A DNA stretch of 64,000 nucleotides. It comes from Patescibacteria group bacterium (GTDB taxonomy: Bacteria > Patescibacteriota > Saccharimonadia > Saccharimonadales > UBA4665). The position numbers and the translations under genes were made by a program. The stretch lies in contig DATIIH010000013.1 of assembly GCA_035479875.1 (NCBI GenBank), forward strand, positions 37,089 to 101,088, in the 5' to 3' direction. Below, in pieces: positions 19,964 to 31,341 of the stretch. Under the pieces are notes generated by a model. The model was not told where the DNA came from, made no database searches, and was given only the letters and a program-made list of their open reading frames with translations. Each line of letters begins with the position of its first letter. Position 1 is the stretch's first letter.

Positions 19964-20069
19964 ACAAAAACGGTCTGTACTACCCATACCTCATACCAGT
20001 ATACCAACAAATGCTAGTACTTGTCGGTGCCCGGGCAACGACTAATCCAAAGTGGTACAATCTAATCAC

Positions 20070-21509
20070 ATGAAGAACAACGCCTCACTTGTGTATAACC
20101 TGTGCTTAATGGTGGGAGACTTTTTGGCATTAGTGGCGGCATTTGTGGCAGCGTACGTGCTGCGCATTAAGTTGGAGGTGGGCATTAGTAGCGGACCGAT
20201 TGGACCCAGTAACGGTCGAGCCTTTTTGGCCGTTTTTTTGAGCGTCTTGCCGTTTTGGATTCTGATTTTTGCCCTGCTTGGCTTATATAACAGCAACATC
20301 TATGAGTACCGGTTTAAAGAACTCGGGCGGCTGCTTGTCGGCTCGTTTATTGGCCTGTTGTTTGTTATCTTTTGGAACTTTGTGGCCAGCAAGCCAATCT
20401 TCCCTGCCCGGCTGGTGCCGATTTACGGCTTTGCCTTTGGCTTTATCTTTTTAGTAGTCTTTAGAAACTTAGCACGCTTTATCCGGGTACAACTCTTTAG
20501 AAGCGGGACCGGACTAACTCGCGTACTTCTGGTAGGCAACACGTCGATGACACTCGACCTGTTGGGCTGGCTTAATAGCCCGCGCTCCGGCTACAAGGTG
20601 GTAGGCGTGGTGGGCGGCAAACGAGCCGTGGGCAAGCATCTGGTACCGCTATTCCAAACCTTTGGCCAGTTTTTGCTCACTCCGCACGGTGAGCTGCACG
20701 GCATTATCCAGACCGAACTGTATGCAGATGAGGCGCAAAACGCCAAAATCCTCTCCTATGCCCAAGAAAGTCATGTTGGCTACCGGTTTGTCCCGGGCAA
20801 CAGTGAATTGTTTGTGGGCAATATAGAAGTAGAGCTGTTTCGCAACAGCGTGCCGGTAATTACCGTGCATCAAACAGCGTTGTTCGGGTGGGGGCGTGTG
20901 GTAAAACGGCTGTTCGACCTCACGGTCGGGCTGTTCTTGCTGCTGCTTGCTTCGCCGCTGATGCTCCTAATCATACTGGTCCTAAAAATTACTGAGCCGC
21001 ATTCACCAGTATTTTATAAGCCCAAACGTCTGGGGCGTTTTGGCAGCACCTTTAGCTTTTACAAATTCCGTAATATGTATCAAAAGTATTGCATGAGCCC
21101 AGAAGAAGGCTTTGCCAAAATGGGCCGGCTAGACTTGCTCAAAGAATACCGTGCTAATGGCGACTGGCTGGCAAACGACCCTCGGGTGACACCCTTCGGC
21201 CGCATCCTGCGCAAAACGAGCCTCGACGAATTACCGCAGCTGATCAACATCGTAAAGGGCGACATGAGTCTGGTTGGTCCTCGGGCGCTCGACCCCATCG
21301 ACCTCGTTAAATATGACAAGAAGAATCTGATTCTGGCGGTTAAAACTGGGCTGACCGGCCTAGCTGTAGTCTCTGGACGGCGGGGCATCAGCTTTGAGGA
21401 ACGCCGCAAGCTCGACTTGTACTATGTGCAAAACTGGAGTTTTTGGCTTGATATAACGATCCTGCTTAAAACTGTCCGGGTCGCCCTGGGGGGCCGAGGG
21501 AACACCTAA
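20070..21509 (+). CDS. Priming polyprenyl-phosphate sugar phosphotransferase (WcaJ/WbaP family)
   Basis: N-terminal TMs, KRLFDL, FYKFRNM, DPRVTPFGRILRKTSLDELPQLINIVKGDMSLVGPR, DLYYVQNWSFWLD. Confidence 0.92.
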   Translation: MKNNASLVYNLCLMVGDFLALVAAFVAAYVLRIKLEVGISSGPIGPSNGRAFLAVFLSVLPFWILIFALLGLYNSNIYEYRFKELGRLLVGSFIGLLFVIFWNFVASKPIFPARLVPIYGFAFGFIFLVVFRNLARFIRVQLFRSGTGLTRVLLVGNTSMTLDLLGWLNSPRSGYKVVGVVGGKRAVGKHLVPLFQTFGQFLLTPHGELHGIIQTELYADEAQNAKILSYAQESHVGYRFVPGNSELFVGNIEVELFRNSVPVITVHQTALFGWGRVVKRLFDLTVGLFLLLLASPLMLLIILVLKITEPHSPVFYKPKRLGRFGSTFSFYKFRNMYQKYCMSPEEGFAKMGRLDLLKEYRANGDWLANDPRVTPFGRILRKTSLDELPQLINIVKGDMSLVGPRALDPIDLVKYDKKNLILAVKTGLTGLAVVSGRRGISFEERRKLDLYYVQNWSFWLDITILLKTVRVALGGRGNT

Positions 21510-21510
21510 C

Positions 21511-22617
21511 ATGGGCGCGACCAGGACAGCGCCAAAAGTAGCGATTGTACACGACTGGCTGATTGGCGGTGGTGCCGAGCGTGTAGTTTTTGAAATGCAC
21601 CGTCTGTTCCCCGACGCGCCTATATACACCTCGTACGCCACTGAGAAGTGGCGAGCCGATCTAGACAATAAAGTGGTGACTGGCTGGCTGCAACACCTTG
21701 GCACAATACGCAAGTTTATTCCTTTTTTGCGAATCTGGTGGTTTACACATCTTGACCTCAGCAGATACGACTTGGTCATAAGCAGCTCCGGCGCCGAAGC
21801 TAAGGGCATTAAGGTACCCAAAGGCGTAGTGCACGTTAATTACTGCCACGCGCCAACGCACTACTACTGGAGCCGTTACGACGAGTACATGGCGCATCCC
21901 GGTTTTGGGGTGTTCGACCCGTTGGCGCGAGCAGGACTTAAGTTGCTCGTGGGCCCTTTACGCAAGTGGGACTACCGCGCCGCGCAACGCCCGGATTACA
22001 TGATTGCTAATTCTAACTTCACTAGAGCCGAGATCAAAAAGTATTACGGTCGCGAAGCAACCGTAATACATCCACCTGTCCTTATTGACCGCTTTGAACG
22101 CGCCGACACCAACGGCGCACGCAACGGATTCTTGGTTGGCGGCCGCCTCACGCCGTATAAACGAGCCGACTTGGCCGTTATGGCTTGCGCCAAGCTTGGC
22201 CTGCCCCTCACCGTGTTTGGCGATGGCCCCGATCTTGAGCGGCTCAAAGGCTTGAGCGGCCCCACCATTACCTTCACTGGCTATATCTCCGACGAAGCGG
22301 TAGTGCAGTGTTTTGCCCATGCCCAAGCATACATCTTCCCGCTGGTTGACGACTTTGGGGTGGTAGGTATCGAATCGTTGGCCGCCGGCACACCGGTTAT
22401 TAGCCCGCGCGCTGGCGGTGCGCTCGACTATATTCAGGAAGGCAAAACCGGCTTGTTCTTCGAGCAACAAACGGTGGAATCGCTCGGTCAGGCTCTCCAA
22501 GAGTTCAACCTCAAAGACTTTAAATCGGCTGACATTAAAGTGTTTGCGCGCCAGTTCTCGCCAGAGACCTTTAGGAAAACACTCAAACAATATCTCGATA
22601 AGATATTTGACAAATAA
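21511..22617 (+). CDS. GT4 glycosyltransferase
   Basis: VAIVHDWLIGGGAERV, DDFGVVGIESLAAGTPVI. Confidence 0.9.
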   Translation: MGATRTAPKVAIVHDWLIGGGAERVVFEMHRLFPDAPIYTSYATEKWRADLDNKVVTGWLQHLGTIRKFIPFLRIWWFTHLDLSRYDLVISSSGAEAKGIKVPKGVVHVNYCHAPTHYYWSRYDEYMAHPGFGVFDPLARAGLKLLVGPLRKWDYRAAQRPDYMIANSNFTRAEIKKYYGREATVIHPPVLIDRFERADTNGARNGFLVGGRLTPYKRADLAVMACAKLGLPLTVFGDGPDLERLKGLSGPTITFTGYISDEAVVQCFAHAQAYIFPLVDDFGVVGIESLAAGTPVISPRAGGALDYIQEGKTGLFFEQQTVESLGQALQEFNLKDFKSADIKVFARQFSPETFRKTLKQYLDKIFDK

Positions 22618-22641: not shown

Positions 22642-24474
22642 ATGTGTGGAATTGTTGGCTATATCGGAAATAAAAACGGCACCGACGTTGTATTGGCCGG
22701 CCTAAGAGGCTTGGAATATCGCGGTTACGACTCAGCAGGCATTGCCCTGCTTACTAACGAAGGCAAAGCCAAACTACTAAAGCAAGTGGGGCGCGTTGAA
22801 GGCCTGGAGAAACTGATTGACGAAGACGGCGACACCGACGCACGTCTGGCCATCGGGCATACCCGTTGGGCGACGCATGGCAAGCCTTCAATTACGAATG
22901 CCCACCCGCATTGCAACACCGAGCGTACCATTTTTGTGGTGCATAACGGCATTATCGAGAACTATGTTGAGCTGCGCGATTGGCTCACCAAAGAGGGATA
23001 CGTGTTTGCATCGGAAACTGACACCGAAACCGTGCCGCACCTTTTAGACTACTACGTTAAAAAGACTGGGTCGTTCGAGGAAGCGTTTGTTAAAACGCTC
23101 AAAGAAATTCGTGGCGCATACGCCATCTTGGCGATGTACGCTGGCGAACCAGACAAACTATACGCTGCCCGTTTGAGCAGTCCAATGGTTATTGGTGTGG
23201 GCAAGGATGAATGCATCGTAGCGTCCGACCCATCGGCCATTTTGGAGCACACTAAAGAAGTGATCTATGTGCACGACAACGAGATGGTGATTGTCGACAA
23301 AGGCTCTTACAAAATTACCGACCTCATGCACGATGCAGAAGTGCAGCGCGAAACCGAAACACTCGACTTTGACATCAACCAAGCCGTGCTCGGTGATTAC
23401 CCACACTTTATGCTCAAAGAAATCTTTGAAACACCTGGCACCATCCGTTTAGCCTCGCTGGGACGCAGCAATGCCGCCACCAACATGATTAAGCTCGGCG
23501 GACTGGACAGTGTCCGCGGCCAACTGCAATATATCGATCGCATCGTCATTGTAGCCTGCGGAACATCCTCCTACGCCAGTATGGTAGGGGAGTACTTACT
23601 GGAAGAAATTGCCGGCATTCCGGTGGAAGTCCAGTTAGCTAGCGAATTTAAATACCGCAAGGAGCCGTTCTCGCGCTCCACCGCTATGATTGTCGTGTCG
23701 CAATCCGGCGAAACCGCCGACACCATCGCCGCGCTCAAAAAGGTTGAAGATTACGGCGTCCTGCGCCTCGGCATCGTCAACGCCGTAGGCAGCACTATTG
23801 CTCGCATGACCGACGCCGGGGTCTATTGCCACGCCGGGCCAGAGCAGGCCGTGGCTAGCACCAAAGCGTTTATCGCCCAGGTGATGGTGCTCCTACTGAT
23901 CGCCCTCAATCTTTCCAAAGAAAGTAATGAACTCTACAAGCCACTGCTGGAAGAAATTGAAGCGTTGCCGGCCAAAGCCGAACAGATCTTGGCCCAGGCC
24001 GAAAAGATTAAGGAAGTTGCCGAAAAATACAAAGACCACCGCGACTTTCTGTTTATCGGCCGGCGCTACAGCTACCCGGCCGCACTCGAAGGCGCGCTCA
24101 AACTTAAAGAGGTCAGCTACATTCATGCCGAAGGCTACGCCGCCGGCGAGATGAAGCATGGCCCGCTAGCTATGATCGACGAGAACTTCCCCACTTTTGC
24201 CCTAGCCTGCGACGACTCGATGCTGGAAAAAACAATTTCCAACATGCAGGAAATCCGTGCCCGCAGCGGCAAAATCGTAGCGATCGCTACTGAAGGCAAT
24301 AAAACGGTTGCCGCCCACGCCGATGACGTCATATATATCCCTGGGACTATGGAGCAGACCGGCCCCATCCTCCAGGCTATCGTCATGCAACTCTTTGCTT
24401 ACTACATCGCTACTGCCAAAGGCTTAAACGTAGACCGTCCGCGCAACTTGGCCAAATCGGTTACTGTTGAATAG
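22642..24474 (+). CDS. glmS: Glutamine--fructose-6-phosphate aminotransferase
   Basis: MCGIVG, EYRGYDSAG, GHTRWATHG, SQSGETADT, PRNLAKSVTVE. Confidence 0.97.
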   Translation: MCGIVGYIGNKNGTDVVLAGLRGLEYRGYDSAGIALLTNEGKAKLLKQVGRVEGLEKLIDEDGDTDARLAIGHTRWATHGKPSITNAHPHCNTERTIFVVHNGIIENYVELRDWLTKEGYVFASETDTETVPHLLDYYVKKTGSFEEAFVKTLKEIRGAYAILAMYAGEPDKLYAARLSSPMVIGVGKDECIVASDPSAILEHTKEVIYVHDNEMVIVDKGSYKITDLMHDAEVQRETETLDFDINQAVLGDYPHFMLKEIFETPGTIRLASLGRSNAATNMIKLGGLDSVRGQLQYIDRIVIVACGTSSYASMVGEYLLEEIAGIPVEVQLASEFKYRKEPFSRSTAMIVVSQSGETADTIAALKKVEDYGVLRLGIVNAVGSTIARMTDAGVYCHAGPEQAVASTKAFIAQVMVLLLIALNLSKESNELYKPLLEEIEALPAKAEQILAQAEKIKEVAEKYKDHRDFLFIGRRYSYPAALEGALKLKEVSYIHAEGYAAGEMKHGPLAMIDENFPTFALACDDSMLEKTISNMQEIRARSGKIVAIATEGNKTVAAHADDVIYIPGTMEQTGPILQAIVMQLFAYYIATAKGLNVDRPRNLAKSVTVE

Positions 24475-25558
24475 ACAACGCAGCCGGCAACGGCAACGGG
24501 CGACCTAAATCTTCGAATAGGTCGGCGAATAGCTGCAGACCTCGGAGATACAGCGCCTTGGTTTCTGGCTCAACCGCAGCGTGCGAAACGCGCGTGAGAT
24601 ACTGCATGACCGCCGAATACATAACACGGTGATATTGCTGGTCTGTAAAATAAGCCCGGAACCTCGGCATGCCGTCCATATACTGCTGACGGCGCCGGAC
24701 TTCCAGGTGGTAACCGTTGTCTATTTCGACCAGCTCAAACTCTCCGCGCACAATGGCGTTCCAACCGTGCAAGCTCCACAGCAAGCGCCCCTGATCAACT
24801 TCGATCGGATAAGGTTCAATGCGTTGAGGGTCGATCATATAAATGACTCCGTCTTCTACCAACAAGTTGTCGGTGTGGGTGTCGCCATGGACAAAGCCAA
24901 TAGCGTCCGGCGACAAATAATTGCGCAACTCGTCATCTTCTTGCACAGCGGCTACGAAACGATTCGGCCCCGGCAGTAACTTGCCGTTAACCAACACTGC
25001 CTCAGACTCCAAAAGCTTCTGCAGATACAGGAAATCTTTGGCCTTCGCATTGTACGAATTGTATTTATCAAAAAAGAAACTGTGTTCCCTAGAATTATGC
25101 AACGGGATCTTGGGGCTGCTATCAAAGAGTGCTTGGTTCTGATCGAGCGCCTTAATAATAAGATCCATCGTTTCTTGCGTCTCTTTGCCTTCGTTGGCGA
25201 TGGCGATTTGCTCAATGCTGCGCGCATGCCGTAGCCAGCGGAGCAGTACAAAAGCATACGCTTCGCCAAGATGGGACGTAATATAGTGCGGCCGTACGCT
25301 GGGTAGTGCTTTCTCATACCAGCGGGCCTCGTCGCGCGTTACCTTGGCCTCGCCAAACTCAACTTTAAGGCCATAGCGCACATCATCGGCGGTAAATACG
25401 AATATCATTGAGTGGGTGTTATGGCTGTCGTGCACCACAACGCGACGCGTGCTAAGCAGCCGCAGTAACTGGGCCTTAAGATCGTCCCGCGACCGACACT
25501 GGAGCGTGGTAAGACGCTCTAATAAAGTTTTGAGTTCTTCGCCGATGTTCGCTGCCAC
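24461..25558 (-). CDS. APH/choline-kinase-like phosphotransferase
   Basis: Kinase Lys/Glu region (YGLKVE...RDEARWY), Brenner motif HGDTHTDN, YMIDP. Confidence 0.72.
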   Translation of the reverse strand: MAANIGEELKTLLERLTTLQCRSRDDLKAQLLRLLSTRRVVVHDSHNTHSMIFVFTADDVRYGLKVEFGEAKVTRDEARWYEKALPSVRPHYITSHLGEAYAFVLLRWLRHARSIEQIAIANEGKETQETMDLIIKALDQNQALFDSSPKIPLHNSREHSFFFDKYNSYNAKAKDFLYLQKLLESEAVLVNGKLLPGPNRFVAAVQEDDELRNYLSPDAIGFVHGDTHTDNLLVEDGVIYMIDPQRIEPYPIEVDQGRLLWSLHGWNAIVRGEFELVEIDNGYHLEVRRRQQYMDGMPRFRAYFTDQQYHRVMYSAVMQYLTRVSHAAVEPETKALYLRGLQLFADLFEDLGRPLPLPAALSIQQ

Positions 25559-25560
25559 CC

Positions 25561-26319
25561 CTAACCTCCTGCTACGCCCAACATGCCTCTGACCACCATG
25601 GCTGTGTCTTCCCAGCGAGCGACAGCGATGGTGTCGATGCCCAATGCCTTAACAGGATAGTCGTTGCCGCCTTCTTCGAGTTGGTCGCCAATAAATAGTA
25701 AGTCTGATTCCTTAAGTCCGGTTGTCTCTAGCAGCTTCTTCATGCCATAGCCTTTGTCGATGCCGGGTCGGAGAATATTGAGCGATGTAGTGGCGTCGAT
25801 GTTAACTTCAAAGTCCGGGATCATAGCGGCCACAACTTCACGCAACTTCTTGCGCTTGGTACGGTCCGGGTCCCACGCATATTTATCTTCTGGCTTAGCC
25901 TTCTGGCCGAGGGCAGAAAACGCGATTAGGCTCTCGCGGTCGTCGATGACCGGGCCGGCAGGGTTGGCCGGCCACATGCCTAGACTTTTAGCGCCTTTCT
26001 CGAGGGCATCAATGATGCGTTTTTTGTCTTCGTCGGGGAGCGCTTCGATATATTGGCGCACCCATTCATTCTTCGCTAAGTCGTAGCGGTAATACTGCGT
26101 ACCTGCCGTAGGCATCAAATGAAAATGCGTAAATGCTGCGGCGTCGAGCGGCAAACGCTCAATAGCGTTCGCTATGATTTGCTCATACCGCCCGCCGGTT
26201 ATGATGCAAATGTCATAATATTTGGTAAGCTCGACGAGCAGCTCACCCATAGTGTCAGTAATCGGTGATTTGGTGACGGCCAGTGTGTCGTCCAAGTCAA
26301 AAACGATAATTTTCTTCAT
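25561..26319 (-). CDS. HAD-IIB hydrolase, eukaryote-type phosphomannomutase-like
   Basis: FDLDDTL, ITGG, FSALGQKA, GIDKGYG, FIGDQLEEGGNDYPV. Confidence 0.8.
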   Translation of the reverse strand: MKKIIVFDLDDTLAVTKSPITDTMGELLVELTKYYDICIITGGRYEQIIANAIERLPLDAAAFTHFHLMPTAGTQYYRYDLAKNEWVRQYIEALPDEDKKRIIDALEKGAKSLGMWPANPAGPVIDDRESLIAFSALGQKAKPEDKYAWDPDRTKRKKLREVVAAMIPDFEVNIDATTSLNILRPGIDKGYGMKKLLETTGLKESDLLFIGDQLEEGGNDYPVKALGIDTIAVARWEDTAMVVRGMLGVAGG

Positions 26320-27377
26320 ATTACTTTTCCCTCATGCTCATTAGAAAGCTCTTTAACGGCATCCTTTACCAGATGCCCTAGGTCCTTACGAGCAACGACG
26401 GTGCCAGCTGGGGTAGATACGGCAATAACGTTGTCCAGACCTATAACTACCAGTGGGCGGTCGCTTTCATTACGAACGTAGGAGTTAGACGTATGCAGCA
26501 CAACATTGTGCTCACCAAGGATACAGTTGCCGTTATCGTCCTTGGGCGTAACGTCATACAGGTCCCGGAAAACGCCGATGTCAGTCCAGTCGAAGCTACC
26601 TGATAGCGTTAGGAAATTCTTGAGCAGCTCATTAAAAACATAATCTAACTGGATGCCTTTAAAACCCAGGTACACTGCCTCGTATTGCTTGCGACTTTTG
26701 GTAGCCGCGAGGGCCCGATAATCACGCCATAGGTCCGGGCAATCGGCTTTGAGGGCATCGATAAAGGCGTTGAGGGTTCCAACCAAATATCCACAGTTCA
26801 GCAGATACTCGCCGCTATCAAAAAACTTTTGGGCCAGCTCGCGGTCTGGCTTTTCTTTGAACCCGGCAGCACGGTAGACCATATCTTCGCCCGGCATCAG
26901 CTCGGCCTTGTGGATGTAACCAAGCACCGTAGTTGGATGGGTCGGCTCAACGCCGATAAACACCGGCAGGCGATACTTTTCCGTTGCCCTGCCTGCCACC
27001 TTAAAGGCGTGAGCAAACGCTCTGGTGTCTTTGACGGCATGATCGGCCCAGGTGATGGCAATAGGCTCATCAGAATTACCCTCTTTGGCTACTCGCTCCA
27101 ACACCGCCAGCAAGCAGCCGGAAGTGTTACGGCGGCCCGGCTCGACAATAAAATTCGTATCGCTAAGCTCCGATATTTGCTCTTTTACCCGGTGGGCGTG
27201 GCTTATCTCGGTAACAATATAAATTTTGTCTGGTGTTGTTAATAGCAGCGCCCTGTCGTAAGCCAGCTGGACGAGGGAGCGCTTGCCAGAAGGGGTTAGT
27301 AAATGCTTAGGGTATTCAGGCGTGGAAAGCGGCCACAAATGAGTGCCTGCGCCACCTGCGATAATAGCTACTATCAT
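26316..27377 (-). CDS. Mannose-1-phosphate guanylyltransferase-like nucleotidyltransferase (divergent copy)
   Basis: AGGAGTHLWPLS..PKHL, EPGRRNT, FKEKP, FDWTDIG. Confidence 0.82.
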   Translation of the reverse strand: MIVAIIAGGAGTHLWPLSTPEYPKHLLTPSGKRSLVQLAYDRALLLTTPDKIYIVTEISHAHRVKEQISELSDTNFIVEPGRRNTSGCLLAVLERVAKEGNSDEPIAITWADHAVKDTRAFAHAFKVAGRATEKYRLPVFIGVEPTHPTTVLGYIHKAELMPGEDMVYRAAGFKEKPDRELAQKFFDSGEYLLNCGYLVGTLNAFIDALKADCPDLWRDYRALAATKSRKQYEAVYLGFKGIQLDYVFNELLKNFLTLSGSFDWTDIGVFRDLYDVTPKDDNGNCILGEHNVVLHTSNSYVRNESDRPLVVIGLDNVIAVSTPAGTVVARKDLGHLVKDAVKELSNEHEGKVI

Positions 27378-27471
27378 TGTCCCATCATAACAAAAGCCCC
27401 AGATACGGGCATAGTGTGGAGATTACACCGACGGGGCGAGCGCCCAGCGCCCTGTGCTACAATTGGTTCTT

Positions 27472-28548
27472 ATGAAGTTGGTCATCTTTTGTGGGGGTAG
27501 CGGGACTCGGTTGTGGCCCCTGTCCCGACATACGTTCCCCAAACAATTCATTAAAATGTTTGATGGCAAATCGACGTTTCAGCTAGCGATTGAACGCATC
27601 GCGCCAGCGTTTGGCCTCGAAAACATAATCATAAGCACCACCAAGGCATACCGCAATTATATTACAGAGCAGATGCCAGAGCTCCCTCTCGGCAACATCA
27701 TCGAAGAGCCCGAAAAACGTGACCTTGGCCCGGCTGTCGGCTTAAACTTAATCCATCTTAAAAAACTTGGCTACAGTGGCCCGGTTGCGCTACTCTGGGC
27801 CGACCACCTCATGGACAATGTACCGGAGTTCATCAACAGCCTTAAGACTGCTGAAGTCATTTGCACCGACGACCCTAAAAAGGTAGTTCTCATATCCGAA
27901 AAACCACGCTTCCCCAACAATAACCTGGGCTGGATTCATTTTGGCAAAAAGAACCTGGGCGGCAGCTATACATTCGTTGGCTTTAAGTACAAGCCCGAAT
28001 TCACCACCTGCGAGGAGATGTTTAAGTCCGGGGAATGGGACTGGAACCCGGGATATATGGTGTACGATGTCGACCATGCCCTAAGCCTATACAAAACCTT
28101 TGTGCCCGAAGTCTACAGCAGTCTAATGAAGATATACGAAGCCATTGGCACCGTGCGCGAAGCGAGCGTAATTTCGGAGGTCTACCCCACCATACCCAAA
28201 ATTCATCATGACCACGTCATCCCCGAAAATCTGAGCAGTGATGATGCCGTCGTAGTGCGCAGCAATATGGGCTGGTCGGACCCAGGTACACTCTACGCGC
28301 TTAAAGAGGCACTCGTAAAAAAAGAGGCCGACAACCTTGCAATGGGCACCGTCGAAACGCTCGACACATCCGATACGATGATTATTAACCAAGAGAAGAA
28401 TAAGATCGTTACAACAGTAGGGCTGTCGGGCATGGTAATTGTTAACACCGACGATGTTCTCATTGTTGTGCCCAAAACCGAGATTCTTAAAGTTACCGAA
28501 TTGGTTAATCGGCTGGCTTCAGACGCCAAGACCAAAAAATACACCTAG
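27472..28548 (+). CDS. manC: Mannose-1-phosphate guanylyltransferase
   Basis: CGGSGTRLWPLSR..PKQF, EPEKRDLGPA, WNPG, GWSDPG. Start trimmed to ATG 27472. Confidence 0.85.
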   Translation: MKLVIFCGGSGTRLWPLSRHTFPKQFIKMFDGKSTFQLAIERIAPAFGLENIIISTTKAYRNYITEQMPELPLGNIIEEPEKRDLGPAVGLNLIHLKKLGYSGPVALLWADHLMDNVPEFINSLKTAEVICTDDPKKVVLISEKPRFPNNNLGWIHFGKKNLGGSYTFVGFKYKPEFTTCEEMFKSGEWDWNPGYMVYDVDHALSLYKTFVPEVYSSLMKIYEAIGTVREASVISEVYPTIPKIHHDHVIPENLSSDDAVVVRSNMGWSDPGTLYALKEALVKKEADNLAMGTVETLDTSDTMIINQEKNKIVTTVGLSGMVIVNTDDVLIVVPKTEILKVTELVNRLASDAKTKKYT

Positions 28549-28627: not shown

Positions 28628-29230
28628 ATGGTCTACAATCGTTCACAACCAGCTGCGCGCAAGCGGCCCTCACATCGTCCCAAAAAGTTGGTGGTGGTGG
28701 CTGTGCTTGTGTCGCTAGCCGGTATTGTCGCCATACTGGAGCTGACCAATACCACGCATTGGTTCCATCACAAGAGCGCAAAGTTTACGCCGTCGCCGAC
28801 CGCCAATGCTAATACCAAGGGGGCGGGGGCAGTCTCACAGCCGGGGGACGGCTCGTCATCTTCAAGCAATAGTTCGTCACAGACCACGACGGGGACCTCT
28901 AAAGACCAGCAATCTGGTGTAGACCCAAACACACCATTGCAAGCGCCGACTGGCGTATTCGTAAGTAGCCACCACGTTGACCCAGGCAGCAGTATGCAAT
29001 CGGTGTGCAACACCACTTCCGGCGCAAAGTGTAGCATCAGCTTCACAAAAGATGGCGTAACCAAGTCGCTCGCCGCTCAAACCACCGACGCAGGCGGCTC
29101 CACCTACTGGCCCTGGCAGCCAAAAGACATTGGCCTCACGCCCGGCAGCTGGACAATTACCGCCACCGCCACACTGGGTAGCCAGACAAAAACGGCAAGC
29201 GACGCCTCGCCGTTGGAGGTTTCGCAGTGA
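28628..29230 (+). CDS. Membrane-anchored secreted protein with Ser/Thr linker and small Ig-like domain
   Basis: TM helix, S/T-rich linker, two Cys; 4-nt overlap with the next gene. Confidence 0.7.
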   Translation: MVYNRSQPAARKRPSHRPKKLVVVAVLVSLAGIVAILELTNTTHWFHHKSAKFTPSPTANANTKGAGAVSQPGDGSSSSSNSSSQTTTGTSKDQQSGVDPNTPLQAPTGVFVSSHHVDPGSSMQSVCNTTSGAKCSISFTKDGVTKSLAAQTTDAGGSTYWPWQPKDIGLTPGSWTITATATLGSQTKTASDASPLEVSQ

Positions 29231-31341
29231 CGTTAACCCGCAAACGAGTCATTTTTGGAAGTATCGTAAGCGTTGCGTGCACACTGCTGTTTGGTGCTCA
29301 AGCGTTTGCCTTTACGGCCAGTCGAGTCGCCGACGACACCGTGTTTGATGACGTCGCGAGTATGAATGCGGCAAGCGTCGACGCCTTTCTCAATACATTC
29401 CCGAGCAGCTGCATAAGCACCAACAACGGCTTTGCCGCACCCGACGTCACCGGCTACACACCAACCGGGGGCTACACTTATGGCGGCAACGTCAGCGCCG
29501 GCACTGTGATCGACCACACCGCCGAAGCCTACGGCATTAGCCCGCGCGCACTGCTTACTACCCTCCAAAAAGAGCAAAGCTTAGTGACTGGTGGCGGCGG
29601 TTGTGGCGCCCTGGCCTACACAGGCGCTATGGGTTACGGCTGCCCGGACGGCGGCACTACCTACAGTTATTCAGGCCTCAATCTGTACACCCTGCACGGC
29701 AACACTGCTAGCTCGGTAAGCGGTACATGTGTCAACACCGCAGCTAAGGCCGGATTCTCACAGCAACTCATCCACGGTGCTTGGCTTTTGAAGTTCGGCG
29801 AGGAACGCTCCGAAGGCAATATGAGCTGGGCGATAATCAAAACGACCACGGTTGATCGGAGCGGCAACCCCTGGCACAGTAACTGGGACAACTCCGACGA
29901 CCCCCAAAGCTGCTACAGCGGCCCGATGACTCAAGGCACGTTCCAGACCTGCCCCAGCGGCCCTACCGTATCGTACGACGGCCTCATCACTATCGACGGG
30001 CAAGCCACGCACATGGATACTGGCGCCACCGCCTCGTTGTACTGGTACACACCGCACTTCCATGGCAACCAATCGTTCGACACGATTTACGAAGGCTGGT
30101 TTGGCTCACCGATCATCCCCAACTATAGCTGGCAAGAGGTTGGCCAGTACGCGTATACCGACCAGACCAAAACAACTGGGGCCAGTACTATGAACATGCT
30201 GCCCGGCACCCGTGTATATGTTGGCTTTAAGGTAAAAAACACCAGCAACTACACATGGAGTAACACCGGCTTTAATCCCATTTACGCTGGCACGTCGCAG
30301 CCGCTCGACCGCTCCAGTGGATTCTGTGACACTACCTGGGTCAGTTGCAACCGGCCAGCCGTGATGCAAGAATCGAGCGTCGCGCCGGGCGGGATTGCCA
30401 CCTTTGAGTTCTGGTACCAAGCCCCGAACACGGTGGGCACCTACAATGAGCATTTTGACCTGCTGGCTGCCGGCCAAGCCTGGTTCCCGGACATCGGTCT
30501 CACCTTCCCTAGCAGCGTCACGCCGCCTACCTATAGCTGGCAAGAGGTTGGCCAGTACGCGTATACCGACCAGAACAAAACGACGGGTGCAGGAACAACT
30601 AACCTGCAACCAGGTGATCGTGTGTATGTTGGCCTCAAGGTCCGCAATACCGGCAATGTCACCTGGAAAAACAGCGGCGCCAATCCCGTAGACCTCGGCA
30701 CCGTACGCGGCGTCGACCGCACGAGCACGTACTACGATGGCAGTTGGCTGGGCGTGAACCGGCCGGCGCGCATGCAAGAAGCTACCGTAGCTCCGGGTGG
30801 GATTGCCACCTTTGAATTCTGGATGAACGCCAAAAACAACCCCGGCGCCCACGTGGAGTACTTTGCACCGGTCGTGGAAGGCGTCACGTGGATGAACGAC
30901 CTGGGGGTCAACTTTTACATGAGCAACATCAACCCGATCTATTCGTGGCAGTTTATGGGTGAATACGCTTACGCCGACCAAACTAAAGCCACCGGCAAAG
31001 GTACCACCGGCCTCGCCGCTGGCGACCGCGTATACGTTGGCTTTGTAGCTAAAAACACTGGCAACGTTACCTGGCACAACTCTGGCATAAATACGGTGAA
31101 CGTAGGCATGACCCACCCGCTCGACCGCCTCAGCGCATTCTTTGACGGCTCCTGGCTCGGCCAAAACCGCCCAGCGCACATGATTGAACCGTCGGTCGCT
31201 CCCGGCCAAAACGGCACCTTTGAATTCTGGATGAAAACTCCAGCGCAGTCCGGTATCTATCGTGAATACTTTAGCCTAGTGGCCGAAGGCACGGCCTGGA
31301 TGAACGACCCCGGCATGAACTTCTATATGAGCGTTAACTAG
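29227..31341 (+). CDS. Secreted protein: Cys-containing N-terminal domain plus three NBR1-type Ig-like repeats
   Basis: Signal peptide (AQAFA). Three ~136-aa repeats YSWQ..G.YAY.DQ.K...RVYVG..V.NT.N.TW...RPA.M.E..V.PG...TFEFW. Confidence 0.8.
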   Translation: MTLTRKRVIFGSIVSVACTLLFGAQAFAFTASRVADDTVFDDVASMNAASVDAFLNTFPSSCISTNNGFAAPDVTGYTPTGGYTYGGNVSAGTVIDHTAEAYGISPRALLTTLQKEQSLVTGGGGCGALAYTGAMGYGCPDGGTTYSYSGLNLYTLHGNTASSVSGTCVNTAAKAGFSQQLIHGAWLLKFGEERSEGNMSWAIIKTTTVDRSGNPWHSNWDNSDDPQSCYSGPMTQGTFQTCPSGPTVSYDGLITIDGQATHMDTGATASLYWYTPHFHGNQSFDTIYEGWFGSPIIPNYSWQEVGQYAYTDQTKTTGASTMNMLPGTRVYVGFKVKNTSNYTWSNTGFNPIYAGTSQPLDRSSGFCDTTWVSCNRPAVMQESSVAPGGIATFEFWYQAPNTVGTYNEHFDLLAAGQAWFPDIGLTFPSSVTPPTYSWQEVGQYAYTDQNKTTGAGTTNLQPGDRVYVGLKVRNTGNVTWKNSGANPVDLGTVRGVDRTSTYYDGSWLGVNRPARMQEATVAPGGIATFEFWMNAKNNPGAHVEYFAPVVEGVTWMNDLGVNFYMSNINPIYSWQFMGEYAYADQTKATGKGTTGLAAGDRVYVGFVAKNTGNVTWHNSGINTVNVGMTHPLDRLSAFFDGSWLGQNRPAHMIEPSVAPGQNGTFEFWMKTPAQSGIYREYFSLVAEGTAWMNDPGMNFYMSVN
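30123..30574 (+). repeat. Exact 44-nt intragenic direct repeat (30123-30166 and 30531-30574)
   Basis: CTATAGCTGGCAAGAGGTTGGCCAGTACGCGTATACCGACCAGA twice, period 408 nt. Confidence 0.9.

Follow-up and report, generated by a model that had tools for sequence, protein, structure and literature searches.

A PgmH-type phosphohexomutase and an ELK-fold kinase form a co-inherited module in Saccharimonadales surface-glycan loci

A 64,000-nucleotide stretch of a Saccharimonadales genome (assembly GCA_035479875.1, contig DATIIH010000013.1; hereafter the window) contains a surface-glycan locus in which three coupled minus-strand genes encode a ManC-like sugar-1-phosphate nucleotidyltransferase (NTase; P0003), a HAD-IIB protein (P0002) and an APH-family kinase (P0001), facing a second, divergently transcribed ManC-like gene (P0004). 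Open reading frames (ORFs) and translations confirm this layout, which was proposed in a preliminary description of the DNA, and Pfam and NCBIfam profiles together with PDB matches uphold the family assignments made there. Here we report that the HAD and the kinase are a co-inherited, often fused unit. It is the kinase and its module that are new; the NTase–HAD pair is already standard in the order. We estimate a probability of about 0.5 that the kinase is an anomeric (C1) hexose or hexose-6-phosphate kinase which, with the HAD, drives the supply of hexose-1-phosphate for nucleoside diphosphate (NDP)-hexose synthesis.

The HAD and the kinase are inherited as one module

Half of the kinase clade to which P0001 belongs (17 of 34 members) consists of HAD–kinase fusions of about 615 aa, joined without a linker and with the kinase at the HAD C terminus; in the remaining members with context, the kinase directly follows the HAD. 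Our gene-neighbourhood survey found the kinase always adjacent or fused to a HAD wherever its context was available. Larger fusions (>640 aa, for example an NTase–HAD–kinase triple) were not found, which is weak evidence.

The two phylogenies, built by a quick method with support from the Shimodaira–Hasegawa-like approximate likelihood ratio test (SH-aLRT) only, tell the same story. All HAD-linked kinases fall into a single clade (100% support) on a long stem, nested among kinases of other context. On the HAD side, the kinase-associated proteins cluster (SH-aLRT 93) and stand apart from 29 stand-alone HADs, those of the window's own family included, so that the two trees correspond. Four genomes (G000, the source of the window, and G401, G402 and G403) each have no PgmH-type gene besides the kinase-linked HAD; the module therefore replaces a housekeeping mutase and is not an addition to one.

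The module adjoins ManC-like NTases of three unrelated types: that of P0003 (G000 and locus L002), that of P0004 (L060) and a type with the signature GTK (L001, L061 and G444). Together, the fusions in half of the clade, the grouping of the HADs and the constant ManC-like neighbour bear out the functional link of the kinase to HAD and NTase that had been proposed. Within one genus, alternative NTase/HAD/kinase cassettes fill the same site beside glmS. In a lineage with 44% identity, the HAD–kinase pair follows a phosphoglucose isomerase/phosphomannose isomerase (PGI/PMI) gene and a cupin PMI-like gene, both suppliers of hexose-6-phosphate. In L060, a P0004-type copy (70% identical) lies two genes upstream of the fused HAD–kinase. 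A UDP-glucose/GDP-mannose 6-dehydrogenase gene lies 5′ of that fusion (L060:6679-8004) and a gene for a 449-aa protein without a Pfam family lies 3′ of it (L060:9839-11188), which hints that the NDP-hexose there is oxidized to a uronic acid.

A prediction of the HAD–kinase complex scored 0.00, which is no answer and speaks neither for nor against binding. Literature searches on PgmH biochemistry, on bacterial glucose-1,6-bisphosphate synthases or phosphoglucokinase and on GDP-mannose genes of Saccharibacteria yielded background only, with no account of a fusion between a kinase and a phosphohexomutase of the HAD type.

P0002 belongs to the PgmH family

P0002 scores 82 bits against the HAD-IIB model TIGR01484 (cut-off 41.8) and 30.6 bits against the phosphomannomutase (PMM) family PF03332 (cut-off 22.4). 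Its full length (residues 1–248) aligns with the α-phosphoglucomutase PgmH of Lactococcus lactis (PDB 4BND, E = 3e-59; Neves et al. 2006, as cited in PMC8576529), and eukaryotic PMMs are distant (E about 1e-7). P0002 shares with PgmH the HAD-IIB fold related to eukaryotic PMM, the DxD nucleophile motif (FDLDDT, aligned with FDIDNT) and the type of its cap motifs, ESLIAFS and DATTSLN aligning with ESMIAYS and AGTTTIN. PgmH stands alone, whereas HADs of the P0002 subclade invariably come with an ELK-fold kinase, either as a coupled gene or in fusion. Judged by its sequence, P0002 is a PgmH-family phosphohexomutase, with predicted mutase activity.

The preliminary description had read the substrate-cap motifs as altered. 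We compared 49 HADs, comprising those of the window and L002, 29 stand-alone, 17 kinase-fused and one kinase-adjacent. All 29 stand-alone HADs of the order carry [ST]Q[IV]x[FY]S, and all but two of them GGxT[ST]xD; the 17 fused HADs and the kinase-adjacent one carry TQIT and NGNTSxD. The combination of SLIAFS and D[AS]TTSLN is confined to the window and L002, whose HADs have eight changes at columns at least 87% conserved in the 47 others (including Q131L, T133A, G176A/S and D181N). Cap motif 2 has thus changed in both kinase-associated lineages, from GGxTSxD to either NGNTSxD or D[AS]TTSLN. For each of the three HAD classes, 4BND is the nearest match (203.8, 200.5 and 162.4 bits). The motifs are therefore atypical for the order, as had been noticed, but they are of the same type as those of the characterized PgmH; given that match, they point to a known glucose-phosphate mutase, not to an exotic substrate.

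Counts over sampled genomes are given here as found or not found among the genomes searched. On this basis, 147 of the 401 genomes sampled from the order have the HAD type (a count that includes the unpublished G353).

A rare kinase with an intact catalytic core

The only Pfam family of P0001 is the generic APH family (PF01636, 31.9 bits, cut-off 23.2); there is no NCBIfam match, and no PDB sequence match at E ≤ 10. Its AlphaFold2 model (mean predicted local distance difference test score, pLDDT, 94.8) is closest in fold to methylthioribose (MTR) kinase (Z = 17.3), maltokinase (16.8) and the aminoglycoside enzyme APH(4) (16.3), followed by a choline-kinase-like protein (16.1), glucosamine kinase (PDB 6HWJ, 15.9) and NahK (13.7). 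The catalytic core is intact: K65 and E77 (the β3 Lys and αC Glu pair), H224-G225-D226 and N231 (HGDxxxxN) and D243 (the Mg-binding Asp) are invariant in 69 family members. Against this background the kinase clade has gained basic residues (R75, H91, R212, H310, R323 and K258R). Several of these are predicted to line the substrate pocket, in the C-terminal helices of the fold, which fits a phosphorylated substrate.

The kinase is rare. Homologues amount to 36 clusters among 5.8 billion proteins, and a scan of one genome each from 185,579 species returned four loci of the clade. The 400 other genomes of the order gave one kinase-family match beyond weak partial ones, and that belongs to another subfamily; within the genus, the kinase is present in 4 of 21 genomes (G000, G450, G439 and G444). 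Feature and shape searches of the ESM Atlas recovered only generic APH-like clusters and NTase–kinase fusions. One ESM Atlas cluster, of 688-aa proteins mostly from phage (Uroviricota), contains a domain similar in shape to the kinase. Hydrolase_3 (HAD) or NTP_transf_3 domains are also present in some of its members, which may represent a viral kinase/HAD/NTase combination.

The relatives of the clade bear on the position that is phosphorylated. In a sister subfamily (28–32% identity), the kinase gene lies directly upstream of an NTP_transferase gene (about 282 aa) and no mutase is present, so that the product of the sister kinase must be the NTase substrate; more distant relatives are NTase–kinase fusions. 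Because sister clades feed an NTase directly and the best folds are anomeric kinases, the kinase most likely phosphorylates C1. The sister cluster also contains, on the other strand, dehydroquinate (DHQ)-synthase-like, transaldolase/fructose-6-phosphate aldolase (FSA)-like and NUDIX genes, a cluster conserved in the candidate phyla radiation (CPR). On the kinase strand the NTase is followed by a gene for a GT-B-like protein of about 430 aa, a glycosyltransferase family 4 (GT4) gene or a GH130-like gene. This cluster looks like the activation of a cyclitol or unusual sugar from a sugar phosphate.

P0001 does not resemble an aminoglycoside resistance phosphotransferase: PDB and NCBIfam sequence matches are lacking and the neighbours are sugar-nucleotide genes. 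More broadly, every protein here might be ordinary, with both ManCs and the HAD serving GDP-mannose and the kinase unrelated to them, either an antibiotic or small-molecule kinase or one that regulates the mutase by protein phosphorylation. The generic APH assignment and the high fold rank of APH enzymes suit such a view, as does the standing of the NTase–HAD pair in the order without a kinase. We nevertheless think it improbable: the kinase has repeatedly fused to the HAD, shares its phylogeny and has kept its NDP-sugar placement across subfamilies, and no resistance genes occur among its neighbours.

A proposed ATP-driven route to hexose-1-phosphate

In the reading that we favour, P0003 and a PgmH-type HAD would be the ordinary hexose-6-phosphate to hexose-1-phosphate to NDP-hexose pair of Saccharimonadales surface-glycan loci, yielding GDP-mannose and/or an NDP-glucose. 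The co-inherited HAD and kinase have taken the place of the stand-alone HAD in a few lineages, and the kinase would act on the very sugar that the mutase handles, phosphorylating its anomeric (C1) hydroxyl. Together, the two enzymes would shift phosphate from C6 to C1 in an ATP-driven, effectively irreversible manner and deliver hexose-1-phosphate to the ManC-like NTase. We infer the substrate, the phosphorylated position and the order of the steps, and the probability given above is a joint one, split roughly evenly between two such orders. In the first, the kinase would act on hexose-6-phosphate to give hexose-1,6-bisphosphate, which the HAD would turn into hexose-1-phosphate (the logic of HldE/GmhB/HldC); this bisphosphate serves HAD-type mutases as both cofactor and intermediate. 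In the second, the HAD would act as a phosphatase before the kinase takes the free hexose (the logic of MupP/AmgK/MurU), and salvage of hexoses would be possible as well.

More specifically, and only tentatively, the kinase could be an ATP-dependent hexose-6-phosphate 1-kinase, that is, an ELK/APH-fold hexose-1,6-bisphosphate synthase, teamed with the HAD mutase. Such a pair would prime itself, or would convert hexose-6-phosphate into hexose-1-phosphate irreversibly at the expense of ATP, and would be the equivalent for hexoses of the heptose route through HldE/GmhB. HAD-type PMMs need hexose-1,6-bisphosphate, the activity of HAD5 rising from 0.56 to 7.67 µmol/min/mg on addition of glucose-1,6-bisphosphate (PMC8808168); human PMM1 and PMM2 likewise need an activator, and PMM1 hydrolyses bisphosphates (PMC5736207). 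The basic residues of the kinase and the changed cap motif 2 of the HAD fit an altered hand-over between the two enzymes, without being proof of it.

Several observations weigh against the C1-kinase proposal. The kinase is absent from 145 of the 147 HAD-bearing sampled genomes of the order, so the mutase does not generally need it. The fold matches from Z of about 17 to about 16 are effectively tied, and they include APH(4), the choline-kinase-like protein and glucosamine kinase, a 6-kinase. We know of no described kinase with the ELK/APH fold whose substrate is a sugar phosphate. Finally, the kinase completes no pathway. G000 (1.17 Mb, 99% complete) already encodes a ROK-family sugar kinase, a bifunctional PGI/PMI, a GalU-like NTase and one GlmM-like α-D-phosphohexomutase; the route from fructose-6-phosphate through hexose-1-phosphate to NDP-hexose is complete without the kinase, which is therefore accessory. 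Type I PMI is absent from G000, as is any cupin PMI above threshold. The bifunctional PGI/PMI rules out a need for the kinase as a mannokinase making up for a missing PMI.

The same inventory bears on a classic three-step salvage, in which the kinase would be a hexose 6-kinase (acting, for example, on scavenged mannose or glucose), the HAD would move the phosphate to C1 and the NTase would activate the product. We consider this unlikely. The three steps would be consecutive, the trio or module is conserved, an ELK-fold 6-kinase exists in glucosamine kinase (Z = 15.9) and the patchy, accessory distribution suits a salvage gene. In G401, moreover, no ROK kinase is shown; no completeness figure is available for G401, G402 and G403, and absences from these genomes have to be read accordingly. 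Against salvage by a 6-kinase, G000, G402 and G403 already own a ROK sugar kinase, and the product of a 6-kinase would be usable by PGI/PMI too, which leaves fusion, co-evolution and the replacement of the resident HAD without a special reason; the sister clades that feed NTases directly also imply C1 chemistry. The kinase–mutase–NTase logic of salvage or activation suggested at the outset thus holds as to the linkage of the genes, but its classic 6-kinase form, although possible, is not the best fit.

Two ManC-like nucleotidyltransferases

P0003 and P0004 both match NTP_transferase (PF00483; E = 2.4e-28 for P0003) and the ManC β-helix (PF22640) above cut-offs and lack the PMI cupin domain, and P0003 aligns with the GDP-mannose pyrophosphorylase (GMP) of Thermotoga maritima (PDB 2X5S, E = 4.8e-53). 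On the ManC equivalog profiles TIGR01479 and NF012004 they reach 178.8 and 194 bits, well below the cut-off of 372.95; this shortfall is not decisive, since the TIGR01479 model was built on the bifunctional GMP/PMI form (467 positions). Both are ManC-like, and their nucleotide and sugar specificities are predictions.

The translated signatures are GGAGTHLWP in P0003 and GGSGTRLWP in P0004, so that P0003 lacks the catalytic arginine of the ManC signature (G-x-G-x-R), which P0004 retains; this His sets P0003 apart from ManC/GMP enzymes such as 2X5S, with which both proteins share the NTP_transferase and β-helix domains. The preliminary description had noted GTH in place of GTR. All 26 P0003-type orthologues examined keep Arg (GGxG[TS]RLWP), including the L002 orthologue with 86% identity (CGG against CAT at codon 13). 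GTH is thus a private substitution and not a family trait. R13H is also the only deviation of P0003 at 73 columns invariant in 24 orthologues, within the range of 0–5 seen when control orthologues were left out one at a time, and we therefore reject the idea that P0003 has been decaying since P0004 was gained.

P0003 is the resident type. It occurs in 152 of 401 sampled genomes of the order (a count that includes the unpublished G033). In 20 NTase–HAD loci, fetched because NTase and HAD hits stood close together, the NTase directly adjoins the HAD throughout and is the upstream partner in 19. Most of the 20, and likewise L034–L036, also hold glmS and/or GT4 and Bac_transf genes. An NTase–HAD pair beside glmS is accordingly the ordinary arrangement of the order. 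P0004, by contrast, is a newcomer in lineage terms. Its type, with more than 2,300 homologues across the CPR, many of them named mannose-1-phosphate guanylyltransferase at source, is found in 2 of the 401 genomes, so that the copy earlier described as the more canonical is not the resident one. It is not at the syntenic site of L002 and L003, and its region has no DNA-level match in 20 other species of the genus. The P0004 ORF is listed from a GTG at 27454; homologues have 358 aa and start at the equivalent of an ATG at 27472 (MKLVIF...), which is probably the true start and would leave a divergent intergenic region of about 94 bp. The third ManC-like type (L001, L061 and L068), upstream of fused HAD–kinases, has Lys for the signature Arg (GGQGTKLWPYS); it is about 29% identical to P0004, with 76% identity between two genomes.

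The preliminary description had proposed that the trio makes an unusual NDP-sugar or a polyol derivative; in that scheme the kinase would work with a HAD and an NTase that have both changed specificity, yielding an NDP-sugar based on neither mannose nor glucose. The window and L002 NTases do form a divergent branch, marked by 33 derived changes that they share (at most 2 in control pairs), their HADs have the eight changes at conserved columns given above, and the DHQ-synthase-like, transaldolase and NUDIX genes of the sister-kinase cluster suggest an odd sugar or cyclitol. Yet 21 of the 33 NTase changes recur in kinase-less NTases of the same genus, which also weakens the case for co-divergence of NTase and kinase. 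The changes in the HADs converge on the cap motifs found in the L. lactis enzyme, which acts on glucose phosphate, and no second mutase of this kind accompanies the kinase-linked HAD in its genomes. With ordinary feeders present as well (ROK, PGI/PMI and GalU-like), we find the unusual-sugar claim unsupported and its truth very doubtful.

Organization and setting of the locus

The positions of the features are collected in Table 1. The P0003 stop and the HAD start overlap as ATGA, an arrangement of translational coupling; the HAD stop (TAG) is followed after 2 nt by the kinase GTG, with AGGAGG 8 nt upstream of the GTG. Kinase and glmS overlap tail to tail by 14 bp (24461-24474), as they do identically in L002 and L003, and no terminator-like hairpin was detected in the overlap. 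Rfam yielded no RNA family in the window, and a scan for promoters and terminators gave nothing above chance.

Table 1 Features of the locus and of the related sister cluster (window positions unless a locus is named)
Feature	Position	Strand	Assignment or remark
Kinase P0001, 365 aa	24461..25558	minus	APH/ELK-fold small-molecule kinase; PF01636
HAD P0002, 252 aa	25561..26319	minus	Predicted HAD-IIB phosphohexomutase, PgmH family, kinase-associated subclade
NTase P0003, 353 aa	26316..27377	minus	ManC-like sugar-1-phosphate nucleotidyltransferase, the order's resident type, R13H
Codon 13 of P0003	27339..27341	minus	CAT (His); Arg in orthologues, CGG in L002
P0004, second ManC-like NTase	27454..28548	plus	CPR-wide 358-aa 'mannose-1-phosphate guanylyltransferase' type; transcribed divergently from P0003
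glmS	22642..24474	plus	TIGR01135, 761 bits; convergent with the kinase
Polyprenyl glycosylphosphotransferase	20052-21509	plus	TIGR03025, 327.6 bits; glycan-initiation part of the conserved block
GT4 glycosyltransferase	21511-22617	plus	PF00534 and PF13439; glycan-initiation part of the conserved block
Sister kinase cluster	L037:4486-10076, L038:2657-7658, L039:2687-8584, L021:167-3419

A block in which Bac_transf, GT4 and glmS converge on HAD and NTase is conserved, with synteny in L001, L002, L060 and L044–L059, and it is present in kinase-less genomes too. On the 3′ side of P0004 follow a gene for a protein with immunoglobulin (Ig)-like domains, two methyltransferase genes and more GT2 and GT4 genes. 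With the glycosylphosphotransferase, GT4, GT2, methyltransferase and Ig-like neighbours, this is a surface-glycan locus. The interval 28628-31341 encodes two proteins, one of 200 aa without a family and one of 704 aa that carries two Ig-like domains (N_BRCA1_IG); both also adjoin the NTase in L002 and L003 (60% and 72% identity). Close relatives of the locus genes carry the label Candidatus Saccharimonadales (CPR/Saccharibacteria).

The glmS neighbour raises an amino-sugar version, in which the kinase would act on glucosamine or N-acetylglucosamine (GlcNAc) from the host wall (or on glucosamine-6-phosphate) and, with the HAD and an NTase, feed UDP-GlcNAc or an NDP-glucosamine. Its convergence and overlap with the kinase gene would suit this, and glucosamine kinase and NahK are among the fold matches. 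Canonical bifunctional GlmU, moreover, was found in none of 41 genomes of the family (G000 and 40 others, including the unpublished G414 and G281), and an α-D-phosphohexomutase of GlmM/PGM type (PF02878, PGM_PMM_I) was not found in G402 (L003) or G403 (L018), two of the three further kinase-bearing genomes, both without a completeness figure. No phosphohexomutase besides the kinase-linked HAD was detected in either. In place of GlmU, the 41 genomes have only NTases of about 300 aa that match the N-terminal part of its model, all below the cut-off (in G000, C9:50417-51220). We hold the amino-sugar version to be a poor prospect, because the adjacency of glmS, being present in kinase-less genomes, predates the kinase, the closest characterized relative of the HAD is a glucose-phosphate mutase, the NTases are ManC-like and G000 has a GlmM-like gene.

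Comparison with known systems

Hexose-1,6-bisphosphate is required by HAD-type PMM and phosphoglucomutase (PGM) enzymes as far apart as human PMM2 and Lactococcus PgmH, and their reaction runs close to an equilibrium in which the sugar-1-phosphate is disfavoured. Fusion of a kinase to such a mutase suggests a new means to prime or drive this step. If the C1-kinase reading is true, it would give a function to a kinase clade without a named relative by sequence, and would constitute an ATP-driven route to sugar-1-phosphate without a described precedent among hexoses. The locus also acts like a hot spot for cassettes, and this likely affects the envelope that mediates the episymbiotic life of Saccharibacteria. 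For annotation, three corrections follow: GTH should be read as a private variant, the 'odd' motifs of the HAD as PgmH-like and the 'canonical' manC as the order's unusual copy.

The same three kinds of protein, and the same logic, occur in the MupP/AmgK/MurU route of Pseudomonas. There, a HAD phosphatase removes a 6-phosphate, an APH/ELK-fold anomeric kinase makes the sugar-1-phosphate and an NTP_transferase makes the NDP-sugar; we know of no HAD–kinase fusion in that route. MupP is not HAD-IIB PMM-like, the sugars are MurNAc and GlcNAc, and the MurU model (NF045761) matches neither P0003 nor P0004, giving a weak match on the GalU-like gene only. In the heptose route, HldE (HddA)/GmhB/HldC (HddC), an anomeric kinase converts a sugar phosphate to the bisphosphate, a HAD phosphatase takes off the distal phosphate and the resulting sugar-1-phosphate is activated by an NTase. 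The net result is the same ATP-driven relocation of phosphate that we propose here, but the kinases are ribokinase-like (PfkB) or GHMP and not ELK, GmhB is a small and different HAD, the substrates are heptoses and the HddC model (NF049965) matches neither P0003 nor P0004. The likeness to both routes is one of logic only, and the locus is a member of neither.

Among ELK anomeric kinases, MTR kinase (2PYW, 2OLC), maltokinase (5JY7, 4U94) and NahK (4OCJ) resemble P0001 in fold (Z = 17.3, 16.8, 16.8 and 13.7) and share with it HGDxHxxN and the Mg-binding IDP(E/Q), followed by D-x-G. P0001 differs from them in sequence (11–16% identity in structural alignments, with no sequence-search match) and in that its clade partners a phosphomutase.

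A last comparison is with the glucose-1,6-bisphosphate synthases, represented by mammalian PGM2L1, an α-D-phosphohexomutase family member that uses 1,3-bisphosphoglycerate, and by the phosphoglucokinase reaction (EC 2.7.1.10). As far as we are aware, no ELK-fold ATP-dependent enzyme has been assigned either role, and the kinase described here, if it is the hexose-1,6-bisphosphate synthase tentatively suggested above, would be a candidate gene for the EC 2.7.1.10 reaction. Such synthases would supply the same activator that HAD-type PMM and PGM enzymes need (PMC5736207, PMC8808168).

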